DNA of 64,000 nt from Patescibacteria group bacterium (GTDB taxonomy: Bacteria; Patescibacteriota; Patescibacteriia; GWA2-46-9). A model generated the notes under the pieces. It worked only from the letters and a program-made list of their open reading frames with translations. It ran no database searches and was not told the origin of the DNA. Of the stretch, positions 3,723-52,034 are shown in pieces. Where the stretch lies: positions 1,731 through 65,730 of the forward strand of contig JBAYUF010000002.1 in assembly GCA_041675205.1 (NCBI GenBank), in the 5' to 3' direction. A program made the translations under genes and the position numbers. Position 1 is the stretch's first letter. Each line of letters opens with the position of its first letter.

Positions 3723-5486
3723 ATGTTATTCGAAAATAGACCCACAAATTGGCGAATACTCTCTGTATTTTTAAATGCAGCCCTGAAATACAAACGGGCC
3801 TTTTTCATTGCGTTTATTGGTGTATTGTTAGCGAGAATCACTGGTTTAACGGCCCCCATTTTCTACAAAAGATTTTTCGATACTCTAGCAACCGTTGATT
3901 TTGCTCTTGTCCCCGCCCTACAAGCCATATTGTTAACAATATTGGGAATTTATCTATTTGAAAACTTACTGAGAAGGATTGCTATATTTGCTGCCATATA
4001 CTTTCAATCCCGAACAATGTCAGATCTCTGGCAATCGGCAGAAGCGTACCTCATGGGGCATTCCTATCACTTTTTTTCGGACAACTTCTCTGGTTCTTTG
4101 GTTCGAAAAGTGACAAAGATGCCCCGTTCCTTTGAGACAATATCTGATGATTTTCTGTTCAATATTATTCCACTCGGCGTTTCCGTGACGTTTATCAGCG
4201 CTGTTCTATTTTCACGAGATTATAGACTAGGAATAGCGATGTTCCTTTGGGTAGTGATTTTTCTATCTATCAACATTGGCCTCGCAAAATGGAAACAGCA
4301 ATATGATATACGAAAAGCTGAGCTTGATTCAAAACTGACCGGTTTTCTGTCTGATATTGTTTCAAATAGTCTAAATGTACAACTTTACACAGCAAACAAG
4401 CATGAAAATGAAGGTTTCAATGCAATTTCACAAACACACGAAAGGGCCAGACGTTTCACGTGGAACATTGATGCTGGAATCGACTCAATACAAACACTGC
4501 TCACCGTCGGCATTGAAATTGCTCTCATGTTCACTGCGGTTAATCTATGGAAACAGCAAATAATTACTATCGGTGATTTCGCGCTGATTCAAGCATACTT
4601 GATTACTGTGGTACTTCAGATTTGGGATTTTGGAAGAGTATTGCGCAGACAATTCGAAGCCTTAGCCGATGCTTCTGAGGTTATCCAGATTTTAGACACA
4701 CCACACGAAATCCATGACGTGATAACTGCAAAGCCACTAAAGCCAGCCGGGGGCGAAATCGACTTTCGGAATGTAAGTTTCAGCTTTAACAAAACAAGAA
4801 CCGTTCTCAAACAGTTTTCGCTTTTAGTGAAAGCAGGTGAGCGTATTGCCCTCGTTGGTCCGTCGGGTGCAGGAAAATCTACAATCACGAAGTTGCTCTT
4901 CAGGCTTTACGATGTTGACCATGGTCGTATCTTAATTGATGGCCAAAATATTGCCGAGATAACACTCGAGAGCTTGCGCGATGCTGTGGCGCTCGTACCA
5001 CAGGACCCGATTCTATTCCACAGAACACTGCTTGAAAATATTCGATACGGAAGTCGGAATGCATCAGACGAAGATGTCATGGAAGCAGCGCGACAAGCCA
5101 ACTGCCACGACTTCATTATGGATCTACCTGAAGCGTATAGCACCTTTGTTGGTGAACGTGGGGTGCGGCTGTCTGGTGGAGAACGGCAGCGTGTTGCAAT
5201 CGCGAGAGCAATTCTTAAAAACGCACCAATTCTTGTTCTGGACGAAGCGACTTCCTCGCTTGATTCAGAGTCTGAACTGCTGATTCAAGACGCACTAAAA
5301 AAGCTGATGCACGACCGAACGACCATTGTTATCGCGCATCGACTTTCAACCATCATGGAAATGGACAGAATTATTGTCATTGAGGAAGGTGGTATTAGTG
5401 AGGCTGGAACACACACTGAACTTCTCGAACGCGACGGGACATACAAACGACTTTGGGAAATTCAGGCTGGTGGGTTTATTACCTAA
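3723..5486 (+). CDS. ABC transporter, fused permease/ATP-binding exporter (MsbA/ABCB-type)
   Basis: 587 aa. The N-terminus has six TM helices. The C-terminal NBD has Walker A GPSGAGKST, signature LSGGERQRVAIARAIL, Walker B ILVLDEATSSLD and an H-loop. Confidence 0.9.
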   Translation: MLFENRPTNWRILSVFLNAALKYKRAFFIAFIGVLLARITGLTAPIFYKRFFDTLATVDFALVPALQAILLTILGIYLFENLLRRIAIFAAIYFQSRTMSDLWQSAEAYLMGHSYHFFSDNFSGSLVRKVTKMPRSFETISDDFLFNIIPLGVSVTFISAVLFSRDYRLGIAMFLWVVIFLSINIGLAKWKQQYDIRKAELDSKLTGFLSDIVSNSLNVQLYTANKHENEGFNAISQTHERARRFTWNIDAGIDSIQTLLTVGIEIALMFTAVNLWKQQIITIGDFALIQAYLITVVLQIWDFGRVLRRQFEALADASEVIQILDTPHEIHDVITAKPLKPAGGEIDFRNVSFSFNKTRTVLKQFSLLVKAGERIALVGPSGAGKSTITKLLFRLYDVDHGRILIDGQNIAEITLESLRDAVALVPQDPILFHRTLLENIRYGSRNASDEDVMEAARQANCHDFIMDLPEAYSTFVGERGVRLSGGERQRVAIARAILKNAPILVLDEATSSLDSESELLIQDALKKLMHDRTTIVIAHRLSTIMEMDRIIVIEEGGISEAGTHTELLERDGTYKRLWEIQAGGFIT

Positions 5487-8799: not shown

Positions 8800-10251
8800 A
8801 TGGTACCAATGATACCTCTTGGCGCGGTCATTCAAGAGCTCAAGGAATCGAGCAACCGTCGTGGGCTCAACCTCCAACTGCCCTGTGACGGGCACTACCA
8901 GCCCGGGGATTTGCGCTGGGCCTTTGGATACGACATGCGCACCTCATGGTGGGCACTTGTGGAATTCCGCTGGCTCGAAACGTTGGCAGCAACCGGGCAG
9001 ATGCCGGTTATGACTGGCACGCTGCTGACGCCGAATCTTCTCCGACGTGTCTTCGAGAAGACGCATACGGCGCGGGTAACGAGGCGTGAACGGGGAACGC
9101 CAACGAACCCCGGAACAGGGCACGACGTTCTTGCCCTCTTGGCGTGCATGCGTCAAGCGCTGCCACGGGAACTGCACCAGTACCTGCACCTCGATCTGAC
9201 ATCGTACGACACCATTTCGACCGCTTACGCGTTGCAAATGCGCGAAGCGTTCGAGGAGACGTTCTACGTCAAAGCTGGTGAAGTTGACCAACGGTGGCGA
9301 AGCCTGATTGCAGAGTACGCCGAGGTGGTCCAAATTGGACGGACTCACCTCCAGTACGCCCTACCCATCACCGTGGGTTGCTGGCTCGCTCAACTGCGTA
9401 ACCGTTTCGCGGCAAGCGTTCGTGAAGCAAGGAAACTCAGTCGCGCGATTCCTGGGAAAGCGAGTGGTGCAGTAGGCACGAGTGCGGCGCTGCGACACCA
9501 CTTTGGAACGAACGACCTCGAAGTTGGGCTACTCAATTCCTTGCGGTTGCCGCGGCCGCTGCAGTCTACCCAGATCACACCGCCAGAAGCGTTCGTCAGA
9601 TTTCTGGGTGAAATTGTACTGACCTCTGGGTCACTGGCTAATCTGGGGGAAGACGTACGGCTGCTGCAGTCGTCTGACATCGGAGAATTGACGAGCATCG
9701 GCTCAACAAGCTCGACGATGGCACATAAGACTGGTAACCCGGTGGCAGCCGAGAATATGGCCGGCATGCACGGCAGTGTTCTTGGTGCGTACACCATGGT
9801 ACTCGGAACACTCGTAAGCGACCTGCAGCGAGACCTTCGCGGATCGAGCGTGATGCGCGGCTTCGGCGGCGTACTTTGCTACACCTACCAGCAGCTACTA
9901 ACCGCCGACCGGTTGCTGAAAAGTCTGCGGGTAAACGAGGCTCGCTGCACAGAGAATCTGCAGAAAGCCGGACCGTGTGTAACGGCCGAACTGCTTTACG
10001 TATCACTGCTGCATGCGGGCTTCGCGAATGCCCATACGCTCGTGAACAAGGTAATCGTTCCGGCGGCGCGGGCAACTGGTTGCGACTTGGTAGTTGCCAC
10101 AGACACGGTCATCAAGCAGACGCGAAACAGACGGCTTCGCGCCGCTTGGACTCTCGTTCCGGAGGAAACGAGAAGGCAAATCGCTTCGCCCAGAGACTAC
10201 CTTGGTGATGCAGTAAAGTTGGCGGTTCGAACTGCCCACGATCAACTGTAA
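8800..10251 (+). CDS. adenylosuccinate lyase family protein (class I fumarate-lyase fold; PurB-like)
   Basis: 483 aa and GC-rich. The fumarate-lyase signature is GSTSSTMAHKTGNPVAAEN (GSSxMPxKxNP). An N-terminal W..EF.WLETLAA block resembles PurB. Its base composition is clearly different from the neighbouring genes. Confidence 0.65.
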   Translation: MVPMIPLGAVIQELKESSNRRGLNLQLPCDGHYQPGDLRWAFGYDMRTSWWALVEFRWLETLAATGQMPVMTGTLLTPNLLRRVFEKTHTARVTRRERGTPTNPGTGHDVLALLACMRQALPRELHQYLHLDLTSYDTISTAYALQMREAFEETFYVKAGEVDQRWRSLIAEYAEVVQIGRTHLQYALPITVGCWLAQLRNRFAASVREARKLSRAIPGKASGAVGTSAALRHHFGTNDLEVGLLNSLRLPRPLQSTQITPPEAFVRFLGEIVLTSGSLANLGEDVRLLQSSDIGELTSIGSTSSTMAHKTGNPVAAENMAGMHGSVLGAYTMVLGTLVSDLQRDLRGSSVMRGFGGVLCYTYQQLLTADRLLKSLRVNEARCTENLQKAGPCVTAELLYVSLLHAGFANAHTLVNKVIVPAARATGCDLVVATDTVIKQTRNRRLRAAWTLVPEETRRQIASPRDYLGDAVKLAVRTAHDQL

Positions 10252-10264
10252 AGAAAGGGAGGAA

Positions 10265-10298
10265 CAAAGAGGGAAACGGCCGTCCGGACGAAAGTCTG
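10265..10298 (+). terminator. stem-loop AACGGCCGTCCGGA...TCTGGACGGCCGTT after the lyase gene
   Basis: Near-perfect 14-bp inverted repeat 14 bp after the stop. The tail is not strongly U-rich. Confidence 0.4.
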
Positions 10299-10327
10299 GA
10301 CGGCCGTTCTCATTACAGAAATTAATA

Positions 10328-10597
10328 CTAGCTATCTAAGAGAACGAAAACGATATCGGTTAACGCCTTGATCTTATGATACGTTCGAGCTGGAAATTCA
10401 ATTTTTGCAGGCCCTTGAATCTTATAGATACGATCTCCTGTTGTTACTTCAGCCATTCCTTTAAGTAGATAAATTAGCTCGGCTGCATTCTCAGAGTTGT
10501 CACCCGATACTGACTCTCTGTTTCTTAAAAAAATTTTGAGACCTGCCGCTTCATAAACCTTCCCTTTTAAATCATCACGGATGAGTTTCATTTCCAT
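10328..10597 (-). CDS. cupin-domain protein
   Basis: 89 aa. GDNSENAAELIYLLKGMAEVTTGDRIYKIQGP fits a small single-domain cupin beta-barrel. Confidence 0.5.
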   Translation of the reverse strand: MEMKLIRDDLKGKVYEAAGLKIFLRNRESVSGDNSENAAELIYLLKGMAEVTTGDRIYKIQGPAKIEFPARTYHKIKALTDIVFVLLDS

Positions 10598-10613
10598 AAT
10601 TAGGAAGACTATT

Positions 10614-10919
10614 TTACTTACCTTTAACCTTTACATTGACGCCACCAACTTTCTTATATGTTCGTTGCTTATTCTTTTTAATCTTTTTTACAATTTCTTT
10701 TTCTAAATCAACGTCTAGCATTTTAGATAGAGAAAGAAGATAAATTGCAACATCGGCCAACTCTTCACCTATATCAGGCAATTTTTTATGATAGGCACGG
10801 AACGCCTCGGCGAGCTCATCAAAGGTTAAACAAAATTCCAAATTAATATCATCGATATTGAACTTCTTTGTATTTTTATTTTCCCAAATCTCTTTTAGAA
10901 TTTTTTGGAAATCGATCAT
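10614..10919 (-). CDS. MazG-like nucleotide pyrophosphohydrolase-family small protein
   Basis: 101 aa. EFCLTFDELAEAFRAYHKK...EELADVAIYLLSLSKMLDVDL matches the all-alpha NTP-PPase (MazG/HisE-like) motif. Confidence 0.55.
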   Translation of the reverse strand: MIDFQKILKEIWENKNTKKFNIDDINLEFCLTFDELAEAFRAYHKKLPDIGEELADVAIYLLSLSKMLDVDLEKEIVKKIKKNKQRTYKKVGGVNVKVKGK

Positions 10920-10944: not shown

Positions 10945-11361
10945 TCAACACTTCAACTCAAAGGTCGGGAATCGGTCACAACTCTCGCCTCGTTCCCTCG
11001 ACTCCGCTGCTGCGGAGCTACTGACAATTCATGACATTCTGATCACATCAGAATGGGTGTTATTGTTGTCGGCTGCGACCCCGCCTCACGAGTTTATCCC
11101 GCACACAGTGAGGGGCTCCGGCTTTCGAATCCCTCACGCGAATGAAGCAGTTCATTCGCTCCCTTCCTCGTTCACAAAGTTCACTTCAAGGGAGGGTCGG
11201 GAATCGGTCACAACTCTCGTTCGCTTCCGCTCACTCGGTCGCGACCCCGCCTCACGGTCTTCGTCGTCAGCAATACTCCTCAGACATCGTTCCGGCTTTC
11301 GAATCCCTCACGCGAATGAAGCAGTTCATTCGCTCCCTTCCTTCGTTCACAAAGTTCACTT
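10945..11361. repeat. two imperfect tandem copies (~235 and ~170 bp) of a unit that starts with a tRNA-Ser 3'-end-like segment, immediately 3' of tRNA-Ser
   Basis: Shared blocks are GGTCGGGAATCGGTCACAACTCTCG (x2), CGACCCCGCCTCAC (x2) and a ~70-bp block CCGGCTTTCGAATCCCTCACGCGAATGAAGCAGTTCATTCGCTCCCTTCCT(T)CGTTCACAAAGTTCACTTC (x2). The last of these abuts the real tRNA end, GGAAGGGGAGGGATTCGAACCCTCG. The track ORFs 10940..11398 and 11142..11462 are translations of these repeats. Confidence 0.65.
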
Positions 11362-11448
11362 CGGAAGGGGAGGGATTCGAACCCTCGAGATCTTGTAGGA
11401 TCTACCGCATTTCGAGTGCGGCCCATTCGACCACTCTGGCACCCTTCC
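11362..11448 (-). tRNA. tRNA-Ser (anticodon CGA), class II with long variable arm
   Basis: The reverse complement GGAAGGGTGCCAGAGTGGTCGAATGGGCCGCACTCGAAATGCGGTAGATCCTACAAGATCTCGAGGGTTCGAATCCCTCCCCTTCCG has a 7-bp acceptor stem, a D-loop GAGTGGTCGAA, anticodon loop CUCGAAA, an 18-nt variable stem-loop and TpsiC loop TTCGAAT. CCA is not encoded. Confidence 0.85.
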
Positions 11449-11568
11449 ATAGGCTTACTTAGTGTACAGAACTATTCGTATGACCGCGCGACCACTTTGG
11501 CACCCTTCCACAGGTTTACTTAGAAACGTGCTTCGCACGCTACCATGACCGAACGTCTTCAACAAGCT

Positions 11569-33282: not shown

Positions 33283-33603
33283 AGAATGAGTAACTTTTAT
33301 AATATTACTAATTCTAGATGTTTCACTAATTCTTGTCAACAAACTAAATGTTTGTAGAACTTATACTTGGCCAATTTTATAGAAATAGGCCATAATGATT
33401 GCGACAATTGAATTGCCTAAACCACTGGGTAACCAGCGGCATGGCAAGAAATCCCACAACGATACTGAACCCCGTGTTCAGCGACTCGTTGTGGGTCATA
33501 TCCCGAAAGGGGTATGGGGCAGAAAGGCTCAGCTGGCGCGGGGCTCTGTGTTGCACCCCAAGCGCCTTGCTACCTACAAGTCGCTTATTTTTATTTTATT
33601 CAC

Positions 33604-50684: not shown

Positions 50685-52034
50685 TTACACAACATAGAGT
50701 TGCTGACGAATAGTGAGAATATCCTGTCGTATCTTTTCGTCATTTTCAACAGCAGTTTTAATTTTGTCATACGCATGCATAACGGTTGTGTGGTCACGTT
50801 GCCCAACATGTTGGCCAATGGAAGGGAAAGACGCCTTTGTTTCTTCTCTCATTAGGTACATGCTTACTTGGCGGGGAAGAACGAGTTCTCGTTTCCTACT
50901 TTTCCCAAGTACATCCTCAATTGATATCGCATAATAACGACAAACGATGTCGATGAGCTGTTTTGGAGTGAGTCGCTCGGTGCGAGTGGTTGTTTGAGCG
51001 ATATCTCGGTACAGTTTTTTCACGTCGTCAAGGGTTGCAATTCGGCCAGAGAATTCTTGTTCGGCGAGCACGCGGTTTAGCGCCCCCTCTAATTCGCGGA
51101 CATTGTGCTGCACAACAGACGCAAGGTAGCCAAGAATGTCACCGTCGATGTTTACCCGCTTCTCCTTACATTTCGACTGTAAAATGGCGGTACGAGTTTC
51201 AAGGTCGGGGTTAGCAATATCAGCAATCATTCCCCATTCGAAACGAGAGAGTAACCGTTGTTCGAGGGCGGGGATGGCTTTTGGTGGGCGGTCTGAAGTA
51301 AGCACGATTTGCTTGTTGTTTTGGTGAAGCGCGTTAAAGGTGTGGAAGAATTCTTCTTGCGTGGCTTCTTTCCCAGCAATGAATTGAATGTCATCAATGA
51401 GAAGAACATCAACGGAGCGGTACTGATCTTTAAACTCTTTTGCACGACCGGCGCGAACTGATTGAATGTAGTCGTTCGTGAAACGTTCACTGGTCACGTA
51501 GAGCACCCGAGCGCCTTTTTCAATAAGGTTAAGCCCGACACCTTGCAAAAGGTGTGTTTTTCCAAGGCCAACACCACCATAAATGAATAAGGGGTTGTAT
51601 GACTTACCTGGGTTACTCGCTACTGCCAATGCGGCGGCGTGGGCAAGTTCGTTTCCTTTCCCAACAATGAAAGATTCAATACGGTAGCGCTCATTTAAGC
51701 CAAAGCGTTGCTGCGCCTGGCTTACCGCTACTGCTTTTGGTTCGACTGCTGCAGTCGTCGTGTGTTCAAAGACACCGTCAGGACGATGGACCTCAACTTT
51801 GTACATCACTTCTCGAAGTGTTTCTTGAAGGGTGTTTTGGATAGCAACAACAATGGCGTCGTGGTATTTTTTTTCGAGCCAGGTTTTTGTGAACGTGTTG
51901 GGGACGCCAATAATCACCCGGCCATCATCAACCTCAATAACAAATGTATTTTTGAACCAGGTTGTGAAATTTGCTCGGCTGATGACCAGTTCAAGCTCAC
52001 CCAAAACCGCTTGCCAGAGATGCTCCTTTGTCAT
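50685..52034 (-). CDS. dnaA: chromosomal replication initiator protein DnaA
   Basis: 449 aa. AAA+ core (GGVGLGKTHLLQ, LLIDDIQF), sensor motifs, and the C-terminal DNA-binding domain (SMYLMREETKASFPSIGQHVGQRDHTTVMHA). Confidence 0.95.
   Translation of the reverse strand: MTKEHLWQAVLGELELVISRANFTTWFKNTFVIEVDDGRVIIGVPNTFTKTWLEKKYHDAIVVAIQNTLQETLREVMYKVEVHRPDGVFEHTTTAAVEPKAVAVSQAQQRFGLNERYRIESFIVGKGNELAHAAALAVASNPGKSYNPLFIYGGVGLGKTHLLQGVGLNLIEKGARVLYVTSERFTNDYIQSVRAGRAKEFKDQYRSVDVLLIDDIQFIAGKEATQEEFFHTFNALHQNNKQIVLTSDRPPKAIPALEQRLLSRFEWGMIADIANPDLETRTAILQSKCKEKRVNIDGDILGYLASVVQHNVRELEGALNRVLAEQEFSGRIATLDDVKKLYRDIAQTTTRTERLTPKQLIDIVCRYYAISIEDVLGKSRKRELVLPRQVSMYLMREETKASFPSIGQHVGQRDHTTVMHAYDKIKTAVENDEKIRQDILTIRQQLYVV

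Follow-up and report, generated by a model that had tools for sequence, protein, structure and literature searches.

Downstream of a serine transfer RNA (tRNA) gene of a Patescibacteria group bacterium lies an array of two repeat units, here named B and A, whose nature is the subject of this report. The DNA analysed, hereafter the window, is a stretch of 64,000 nucleotides (nt) of contig JBAYUF010000002.1 (assembly GCA_041675205.1, positions 1,731 to 65,730); coordinates are positions in this 64-kb window, and all parts of the array are read 5' to 3' on the minus strand, i.e. the strand of the tRNA. The gene is recognized as tRNA-Ser(CGA) both by ARAGORN (11361-11449, minus strand) and by the Rfam tRNA model (RF00005; 56.5 bits at 11362-11448, minus strand). 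Unit B starts 20 nt after it and unit A follows unit B at a distance of 19 nt on the same strand; both units belong to a family of structured elements that are found mostly next to tRNA genes of Patescibacteria. The features of the locus are collected in Table 1.

Table 1. Positions and strands of the features of the tRNA-Ser(CGA) locus, with the basis of each assignment
Feature	Position	Strand	Basis or remark
tRNA-Ser(CGA), intact	11362-11449	-	ARAGORN and Rfam tRNA model; synteny in relatives
Spacer 1, AAGTGAACTTTGTGAACGA, 19 nt	11343-11361	-	block counts in the window
Unit B	11187-11341	-	covariance model R1, fold energy, repeat blocks
Unit B, 5' strand of helix P0	11335-11341	-	GGAAGGG
Unit B, hairpin H0	11312-11333	-	9 base pairs, CUGC loop
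Unit B, core with P1/P2/P3	11196-11309	-
Unit B, 3' tail	11187-11196	-	CCCTCCCTTG
Spacer 2, second AAGTGAACTTTGTGAACGA copy	11168-11186	-	block counts in the window
Unit A	10953-11167	-	covariance model R1, fold energy, repeat blocks
Unit A, 5' strand of helix P0	11161-11167	-
Unit A, hairpin H0	11138-11159	-
Unit A, core	10964-11135	-
Partial upstream copy of tRNA leader and 5' end	11489-11523	-	32/35 identity to 11428-11462
Spurious open reading frame (ORF), 152 amino acids	10940-11398	+	called as a gene in the ENA assembly; overlaps the structured element of the other strand
AT-rich cassette, outside the repeat family	10328-10919	-	32-39% GC versus ~50% around it
MazG-like gene	10614-10919	-	Pfam MazG-like 1.5e-6; PHROG pyrophosphatase 3e-11
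Cupin-like gene, 89 amino acids	10328-10597	-	Pfam Cupin_2 1.7e-3

A first-pass annotation of the same DNA had described this tRNA, two imperfect tandem units, a third partial boundary, and a duplicated tRNA 5' end, and had derived the repeats from the tRNA's own ends; most of this description stands. Self-comparison yields, beyond the tRNA itself, direct repeats of 52 nt (100% identity; 11117-11168 and 11291-11342, spacing 174), 27 nt (89%, spacing 175), 25 nt (100%; 10963-10987 and 11195-11219, spacing 232), and 22 nt (91%; 11069-11090 and 11235-11256), which agree with unit lengths of ~175 and ~232 nt. Blocks of 19 and 21 nt are present in exactly two copies each in the 64 kb, versus 0.00-0.01 expected from shuffles; for the spacer AAGTGAACTTTGTGAACGA, the figures are two copies and 0.01 expected. 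Tandem Repeats Finder did not detect the array because its copies differ by long indels. Pairwise alignment of the units gives three 100% identical blocks separated by unrelated stretches of differing length, a pattern that points to a modular structure, since a duplicate that decays uniformly would look different. Tandem duplication, slippage, or unequal recombination is the probable route by which the array grew, in line with the replication slippage that the first-pass annotation had considered. Its third boundary is weak, with only the 8-nt word TTGAAGTG recurring after unit A near 10948-10955; the tRNA-3'-end-like tails it had seen are real, but they are degenerate copies on which the tRNA model is silent at E<=10.

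The duplicated tRNA 5' end was likewise recovered, with one mismatch in its tRNA part. This upstream copy consists of the 15-nt leader CTAAGTAAACCTGTG and the first 20 nt of tRNA-Ser(CGA), and sits 61 nt further up; since the 61-nt duplication is missing in the closest relative (locus L067), it is taken as a recent event. Comparable upstream copies of tRNA 5' ends are found at other Patescibacteria tRNAs. At two loci (L052, ~512-820; L065, ~4345-4460, minus strand), the 5' half of tRNA-Ser(TGA) is copied upstream of that tRNA, and the anticodon loop of the copy is broken after CTTG by a conserved insert (CCAGCCAGAGGCTGGTCCGCC...GGCGGAAAAACTGTC); in L052, the insert-bearing copy is followed by an ORF that resembles a small nuclease (by eye only). 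These genomes thus contain tRNA-associated elements of a second kind. At a further locus (L056, 2405-6105), a 65-nt copy of the tRNA-Ser(CGA) 5' end runs into a diverged core (45.6 bits). Behind it come the intact tRNA and two elements with a 3-kb segment between them; this segment is flanked by 282-nt direct repeats that are 99% identical and hold an element each.

Both units of the window share a core 19-mer, GAGGGATTCGAAAGCCGGA, for which 56 exact matches were found in 54 GTDB species genomes, compared with ~4 expected by chance (2 x 596 Gb / 4^19). The remainder of the motif is missing from four or five of these matches (in Planctomycetaceae, Thorarchaeota, two Acidobacteria, and perhaps L045), a number that fits the chance estimate. 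The others are distributed over Saccharibacteria, Parcubacteria/Paceibacteria, Falkowbacteria, and other Patescibacteria, five Elusimicrobia contigs, and a few metagenome-assembled genomes labelled otherwise. A second scan, of metagenomes, located the 19-mer in 99 stretches; a metagenome scan with a 24-mer specific to the window gave no match. A covariance model of the family, R1, gave 78 matches at E<=1e-5 in those 79 of the listed loci to which it was applied (E-values of R1 are rough owing to a shortened calibration, of which bit scores and pair counts are independent).

Family members usually lie just downstream of a tRNA, and the neighbouring tRNAs include Ser (all four anticodons), Arg(TCG), Arg(TCT), Tyr, Lys, and Val; Ile(TAT), Gly(GCC), and Gly(TCC) came to light with the covariance model. 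Several Parcubacteria-type genomes carry an element behind tRNA-Arg(TCG), with tRNA-Gly(GCC) nearby. The copy of the tRNA 3' end in the element typically spans 19-22 nt, from C56 to 1-3 nt beyond the discriminator base, and includes CCA where the tRNA gene encodes it. Copies at different tRNAs of one genome are dissimilar, and the copy behind a given tRNA recurs in distant taxa; judged from these sequences, the family looks like a set of old, vertically kept paralogues and not like a recently jumping element. A terminator-like hairpin follows within ~100 nt of the element in 21 of 45 members, versus 10 of 40 control windows.

In its canonical order, an element comprises the 5' strand of a helix P0, the hairpin H0, the 5' strand of a helix P1 (GAGGGAUUCG), a three-way junction, and the tRNA 3'-end copy. 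The 5' strand of P0 equals the acceptor 5' strand of the neighbouring tRNA and pairs with the 3' tail. The P1 strand GAGGGAUUCG exactly complements CGAAUCCCUC, i.e. the 3' half of the T-loop plus the 3' strand of the T-stem, and the element therefore closes on itself via P1. The junction reads AAA, GCC-GGA...GA-GGC (P2), GG, and GGUCG.G...C.UGACC (P3), of which AAA, GCC-GGA/GA-GGC, and GG are nearly invariant. Going downstream from the 19-mer, true members without exception show a variable hairpin, GAGGCGGGGUCG, another variable hairpin, and GUGACCGAAUCCCUC, after which comes the acceptor 3' strand of the immediately preceding tRNA. The minimal form is 85 nt long (e.g. L046, 2064-2148). The strands of P1 vary with the T arm of the neighbour and read GGGAAUCG/CGAUUCCC behind tRNA-Gly(GCC), GGGAGUCG with GACUCCC behind tRNA-Gly(UCC), and CAGGGGUCG/CGAUCCCUG behind tRNA-Ile. 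Each element is matched on both strands to its own neighbour tRNA.

The fold is borne out by covariation. Among 30 sequences, evaluated with RNAalifold and our own pair counts, 93.2% of the cells of the core are paired, versus 33-50% when the partners are slid by 1-3 columns; 141 cells are compensatory, versus 40+-6 in shuffles (a value reached in 0 of 500), and compensatory changes affect 13 of the 29 pairs. One pair is an invariant G-U and many others are G-U as well; therefore, the fold belongs to the tRNA-sense strand. In many members, H0, with 9 base pairs and often a CUGC loop, is located 5' of P1. Over 18 sequences, P0, H0, and P1 together are 80% paired (41-53% when slid), with covariation in 7/9 pairs of H0 and 7/9 of P0. 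The CUGC loop is often matched by GCAG or GUAG in the hairpin loop of P2 or P3 (e.g. L010, L013, L046, and unit A of the window, 11010-11025), and CUAC is matched by GUAG in L052; judged by eye, this could be a kissing-loop contact, for which some members have no match. A T-loop intron, a hammerhead-like junction, and a K-turn in P2 were likewise considered by eye; we claim none of these four.

Both window units are recognized by model R1, unit B with 67 bits (E=3.5e-16) and unit A with 49.1 bits (E=4.7e-11), compared with ~100 bits for the best family members; the model finds no further match in the window. All three conserved junction blocks, GAGGGAUUCGAAAGCCGGA, GAGGCGGGG, and GGUCG...UGACC, are present in both units, as is the P0/H0 layout GGAAGGG-AGCGAAUGAA-CUGC-UUCAUUCGCGU, in which GGAAGGG is the acceptor strand of tRNA-Ser; H0 of unit B is the palindrome found by the repeat finder. 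The predicted fold of unit B has an energy of -61 kcal/mol (z=-3.2), and that of unit A has z=-3.1. Unit A holds ~65 extra nt, forming two clean hairpins within P3, and ends in the degenerate tail CCTTTGAGTTG. Rfam 15 has no family for these units at gathering thresholds or at E<=10, and in 18 canonical loci it matched only tRNAs at gathering thresholds. Weak matches in the window to YrlA (18.8 bits versus a cutoff of 69), sX4, and psbI-rps4 were set aside, as they all rest on the genuine tRNA. Searches of the literature and for motif strings returned no description of such tRNA-like RNAs of Patescibacteria.

Relative to the canonical form, the window units are imperfect. They do not carry an exact 19-22-nt tRNA-end copy, their tails being CGATTCCCGACCCTCCCTTG and CGATTCCCGACCTTTGAGTTG versus CGAATCCCTCCCCTTCCG in the tRNA, with an identity run of 3 nt. 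Their 3' strands read CGAUUCCCGA-CCCUCCCUUG in unit B and ...CCUUUGAGUUG in unit A, versus the canonical CGAAUCCCUC-CCCUUCCG, and P0, counted in the register of the alignment, keeps 8/9 pairs in unit B and is mostly lost in unit A. Modelled in this way, the units are eroded family members with imperfect P1 and P0 helices and may be weakly functional. We read the locus as tRNA-Ser(CGA) followed by two partly eroded tandem copies of a conserved, structured element that resembles the tRNA-linked repeats (TLRs) of Escherichia coli and would act as an RNA mimicking the tRNA end, duplicated by unequal recombination; from the sequence evidence, we give this reading a probability of roughly 55%.

Further units occur in the same sample. 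A long contig of the same ENA sample (L062) carries tRNA-Ser(GCT), the same spacer AAGTGAACTTTGTGAACGA, and then a unit nearly identical to unit B over ~198 nt, followed by a diverged second unit that ends in CGAATCCCTCCCCTTC, an exact copy of the tRNA 3' end. NCBI protein naming suggests that L062 stems from the same organism, whose genome would then have at least four units at two tRNA-Ser genes, sharing modules. In a JGI contig (L004), tRNA-Ser(GCT) is joined to the AAGTGAACTTTGTGAACGA spacer, window-type units, and the MazG-like gene with 99.84% identity. This contig was dropped as proof of mobility: it is a mosaic whose switch point lies inside a block shared with L062, and it represents either a recombinant strain or an assembly chimera. 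Logan contigs of SRR6484325 break inside the tRNA and inside unit A (L002 at its end, 7278, and L005 at its start). The repeats thus fragment assemblies, and they could give rise to chimeras such as L004.

The Wzy protein of the window is closest to that of Candidatus Uhrbacteria, and the order Wzy then tRNA-Ser(CGA) is kept in L067, L068/L069, and L071. Inspection by eye shows in L067 a diverged unit that terminates with CCTCCCCTTCCG, together with the 3' end of unit A (...GAGAGTTGTGACCGATTCCCGACCTTT), and in L068 a ~110-nt stretch ending in a degenerate tRNA-end copy. L065, with just 55% identity in the neighbouring protein, carries a unit at the syntenic position behind its tRNA-Ser(GCT). 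The DNA after tRNA-Ser(CGA) is variable, with GDPD and other genes in Uhrbacteria, and the locus is a variable hot spot. In L071 (7121-9943; 50% Wzy identity), an AAA_15/AAA_21 ATPase gene and a gene for a large serine recombinase follow the tRNA.

In the window, the place downstream of unit A is taken by the MazG-like/cupin-like cassette. Its start falls exactly at the end of unit A, which is also the last point of homology to L067; it ends at a strong bidirectional, terminator-like hairpin near 10275-10310, and is probably acquired DNA. No terminator-like site was found between unit A and the MazG-like gene, whose start codon lies ~33 nt from the end of unit A, and the tRNA, both units, and the cassette may therefore share one transcript; a scan of the locus for sigma-70 promoters and terminators gave no more than chance. 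The overlapping 152-amino-acid ORF has no homologue except itself among 5.8 billion protein clusters and no Pfam match, which bears out its earlier dismissal as spurious; the NCBI protein accession numbers, as we read them, seem to have no gap for it between the genes on either side. According to Pfam, the neighbouring ORFs of the window encode Wzy, MazG-like, cupin-like, and lyase proteins, and no recombinase, transposase, or reverse transcriptase; PADLOC has no match for the MazG-like, cupin-like, or lyase proteins. The convergent lyase-family gene (Lyase_1/ASL_C; 8800-10251, plus strand) has an unusually high GC content of 58-61% and is not at this position in Uhrbacteria and L071 relatives. 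Elsewhere in the window, a LOOT RNA (Rfam RF03000) scores 88 bits at 33414-33530 (plus strand; gathering score 46.4), and dnaA, by the NCBI name of an identical protein, occupies 50685-52034 (minus strand), so that the replication origin may be in the window.

The analysis establishes that the units belong to the family, that the members share a covarying fold, are tied to tRNA 3' ends and lie in tRNA operons, that terminator-like hairpins are enriched behind them, and that no recombinase accompanies them; what the elements do is a matter of interpretation. We propose that the units would be transcribed with the tRNA or by read-through, and that P0 and P1 would rebuild a helix like the stacked acceptor and T-stem, with a free discriminator end. 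Enzymes that process tRNA ends would then release a stable RNA of ~110-215 nt, the conserved junction of which would bind a putative partner. The arrays, in turn, could grow, shrink, and homogenize by unequal recombination and gene conversion between the tRNA-end copies. Retention in Patescibacteria, minimal genomes that discard nearly all non-essentials, argues for a function.

Several observations weigh against this reading. The window copies are degenerate, with tails that are no exact tRNA copies and with ~6-7 of 9-10 pairs left in P1 (6/9 in unit B, where the 3' strand is CGAUUCCCGA). About half of the family members have no P0, and their H0 is A/U-flanked and terminator-like. At the tRNA-Ser(CGA) locus of relatives whose Wzy is 85%, 51%, and 50% identical, no canonical unit is recognized by the model; since these relatives have only diverged or remnant units, turnover at this locus seems fast and constraint weak. 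Finally, the match between element and tRNA could reflect a duplicative DNA mechanism instead of an RNA function.

This last point leads to the main rival, namely that the family is a non-autonomous DNA element or recombination module that copies tRNA 3' ends, either by template switching at the palindromic T-arm or through a recombinase acting in trans, with a fold that serves mobility or single-stranded DNA. We regard it as unlikely, yet it has much to draw on: each element carries a copy of its own tRNA's 3' end together with the reverse complement, tandem and dispersed multi-copy loci exist, and the 3-kb segment of L056 is enclosed by two 282-nt repeats that each hold an element. Shared modules recur as mosaics in the four units known from the metagenome sample of the window, the downstream region varies among relatives (with a large serine recombinase in L071), and the AT-rich cassette begins exactly where unit A ends. 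The family, however, lacks a conserved left end, as well as terminal inverted repeats other than P1, and the genes nearby do not suggest mobility: the 2.5 kb downstream of 48 members contain 102 ORFs, of which at most four share any one Pfam family, and no integrase, transposase, or reverse transcriptase is enriched. The 18-mer GAGGGATTCGAAAGCCGG (the 19-mer minus its last base) has no match among the viral contigs of IMG/VR, and the window's unit region has none in phage or plasmid collections (distant blastn). Two IMG/VR matches of a 17-mer lie within a coding region and were taken as chance. The age and dissimilarity of copies within a genome, the sharing of same-tRNA copies by distant taxa, and the invariant and other G-U pairs, which favour RNA, also speak against mobile DNA. 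The tRNA-end copies may still have a role in DNA rearrangement.

The first-pass annotation had interpreted the array as a scar of repeated integration and excision at a tRNA attachment (att) site without retained cargo, i.e. as inert attL/attR remnants at the tRNA-Ser 3' end. The direct repeats do begin in the T-loop and finish at the tRNA 3' end, as in tRNA-targeting integrative elements, and the DNA downstream is variable; nevertheless, this interpretation is largely refuted and must be considered very unlikely. Conservation and covariation of the core hold across more than 45 species, the family keeps its synteny behind the same tRNAs in distant lineages, and three perfect blocks with unrelated hairpins between them are not what uniform decay would leave. 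No integrase is nearby, recombinases are not enriched near family members, and a second match to the tRNA 3' end is absent from the 64 kb (18-mer with <=3 mismatches, 13-mer with <=2), leaving no distal att copy. Cargo-like DNA is, moreover, present in the form of the cassette that begins where homology to L067 ends. Decay of functionless pseudogenes after tandem duplication of tRNA-Ser is no more probable than such a scar. It would account for a P0 strand that equals the acceptor 5' strand, for T-stem-like GAGGG/CCCTC, and for the partial tRNA 5' copies upstream at several loci; the core, though, has no tRNA counterpart and recurs behind Arg, Tyr, Lys, Val, Gly, and Ile tRNAs, its covariation shows selection on the fold, and neither ARAGORN nor the Rfam tRNA model (even at E<=10) finds any tRNA or tRNA fragment in units A and B, the genuine tRNA being the only one detected. 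Almost no weight can be given to a cis-regulatory leader (riboswitch or attenuator) of the MazG-like/cupin operon, or to a real protein gene on the plus strand. The short, terminator-free distance from unit A to the MazG-like gene would suit the former and the ORF spanning both units the latter, but the genes downstream of family members are unrelated and often on the other strand, L067 has the remnant of unit A and no MazG-like gene, and the ORF lacks homologues.

If the elements are, as we prefer, structured RNAs that mimic tRNA ends, a bolder and tentative extension, which we consider doubtful, is that they form a new class of tRNA-specific RNAs, each programmed by an antisense strand of 10-19 nt for one tRNA 3' end and acting on that tRNA or its gene. 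Were this true, roles could be sought in surveillance, repair, or regulation of 3' ends, in decoying an enzyme or toxin that recognizes the acceptor/T helix, or in RNA-guided copying into tRNA genes, and the same principle would explain the TLRs of E. coli. More immediately, the alignment yields a defined fold and a covariance model, and it predicts that tRNA enzymes process the elements and that the junction has a partner; for annotation, the family accounts for spurious ORF calls and for assembly breaks or chimeras beside tRNA genes in these genomes.

Comparison with known systems helps to place the family. Integrative elements that target tRNA genes are bordered by att repeats of the tRNA 3' part, from the T-loop to the 3' end. 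The elements described here share with attL/attR pairs such direct repeats, which run from the T-loop to or just past the 3' end, as well as variable downstream DNA; they differ in that merely 100-250 nt lie between the family repeats, that this DNA is non-coding and itself conserved and covarying, that no integrase is nearby, and that in the window the repeats do not enclose the cassette, beyond which no distal repeat follows. With tRNA-like noncoding RNAs (the tRNA-like domain of transfer-messenger RNA, YrlA/Y RNA, viral tRNA-like structures, and mascRNA), the family would have in common a stacked acceptor/T-stem-like helix, formed by P0 and P1, a single-stranded discriminator end, and a fused domain. 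In the family, however, the T-loop is replaced by an extended helix and the three-way junction, there is no analogue of the D- or anticodon arm save H0, and the helix sequence is copied from the adjacent tRNA; ARAGORN finds no transfer-messenger RNA at the locus. Group I introns of Patescibacteria tRNAs, which self-splice from the anticodon loop at position 35/36 (PMC13011429), are another case of extra structured RNA tied to tRNA genes in the same phylum, but at the present locus the tRNA is intact, the element of 85-170 nt lies downstream, and no Rfam intron family matches.

The closest counterpart is offered by the TLRs, of which E. coli has 22 at ten loci, with one to five per locus, the last 18-19 bp of each matching exactly those of the tRNA or rRNA that precedes it (PMC8144298). 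TLRs have been known in E. coli since 1978 (Egan & Landy 1978, Rudd 1999, as cited in PMC8144298; Stenum et al. 2021), and to those in tRNA operons no function has been assigned (PMC8144298). Those behind 5S rRNA (RrA/B/F) arise when a first terminator is read through and are processed 3 nt beyond the repeat, in which the authors see a processing signal (PMC8144298). Like TLRs, the Patescibacteria elements lie directly downstream of a tRNA gene in one to several units, and the two tandem units behind tRNA-Ser(CGA) and the two behind tRNA-Ser(GCT) of the same sample are within the TLR range. The tRNA-end copy of 18-19 nt in TLRs compares with 19-22 nt in most Patescibacteria members and in the second unit of L062, whereas the window units have only a degenerate version. 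A further likeness may be that some TLRs lie between two terminators, are produced by read-through, and undergo processing beside the repeat. Homology to TLRs, whether of the core or of the sequence in general, was not detected: R1 scores a non-significant 6.4 bits on rttR, aligning P1 alone, and the Rfam family RtT has no match in the window units at E<=10. In the E. coli rttR locus (L072, 1221-1737), GGAUGAGAAGC follows the helix of each repeat and resembles GGGAUGAGAAAGCC of L065 and GGGGUGAGAAGCC of the second L062 unit; convergence or very distant homology may be the cause. In contrast to TLRs, the Patescibacteria family has a conserved three-way junction behind many different tRNAs and across phyla. 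The principle of closure, by contrast, is the same: the 178-bp rttR units of E. coli tyrT/tyrV have a predicted closing helix of 10 bp, GGGGAAGGAU/AUCCUUCCCC, composed of an antisense segment and the copy of the tRNA-Tyr end. By this analogy, the family is the Patescibacteria/Elusimicrobia counterpart of the E. coli TLRs, and a considerably more informative one, with no match in Rfam 15 and a closing helix that is rewritten for each neighbouring tRNA.

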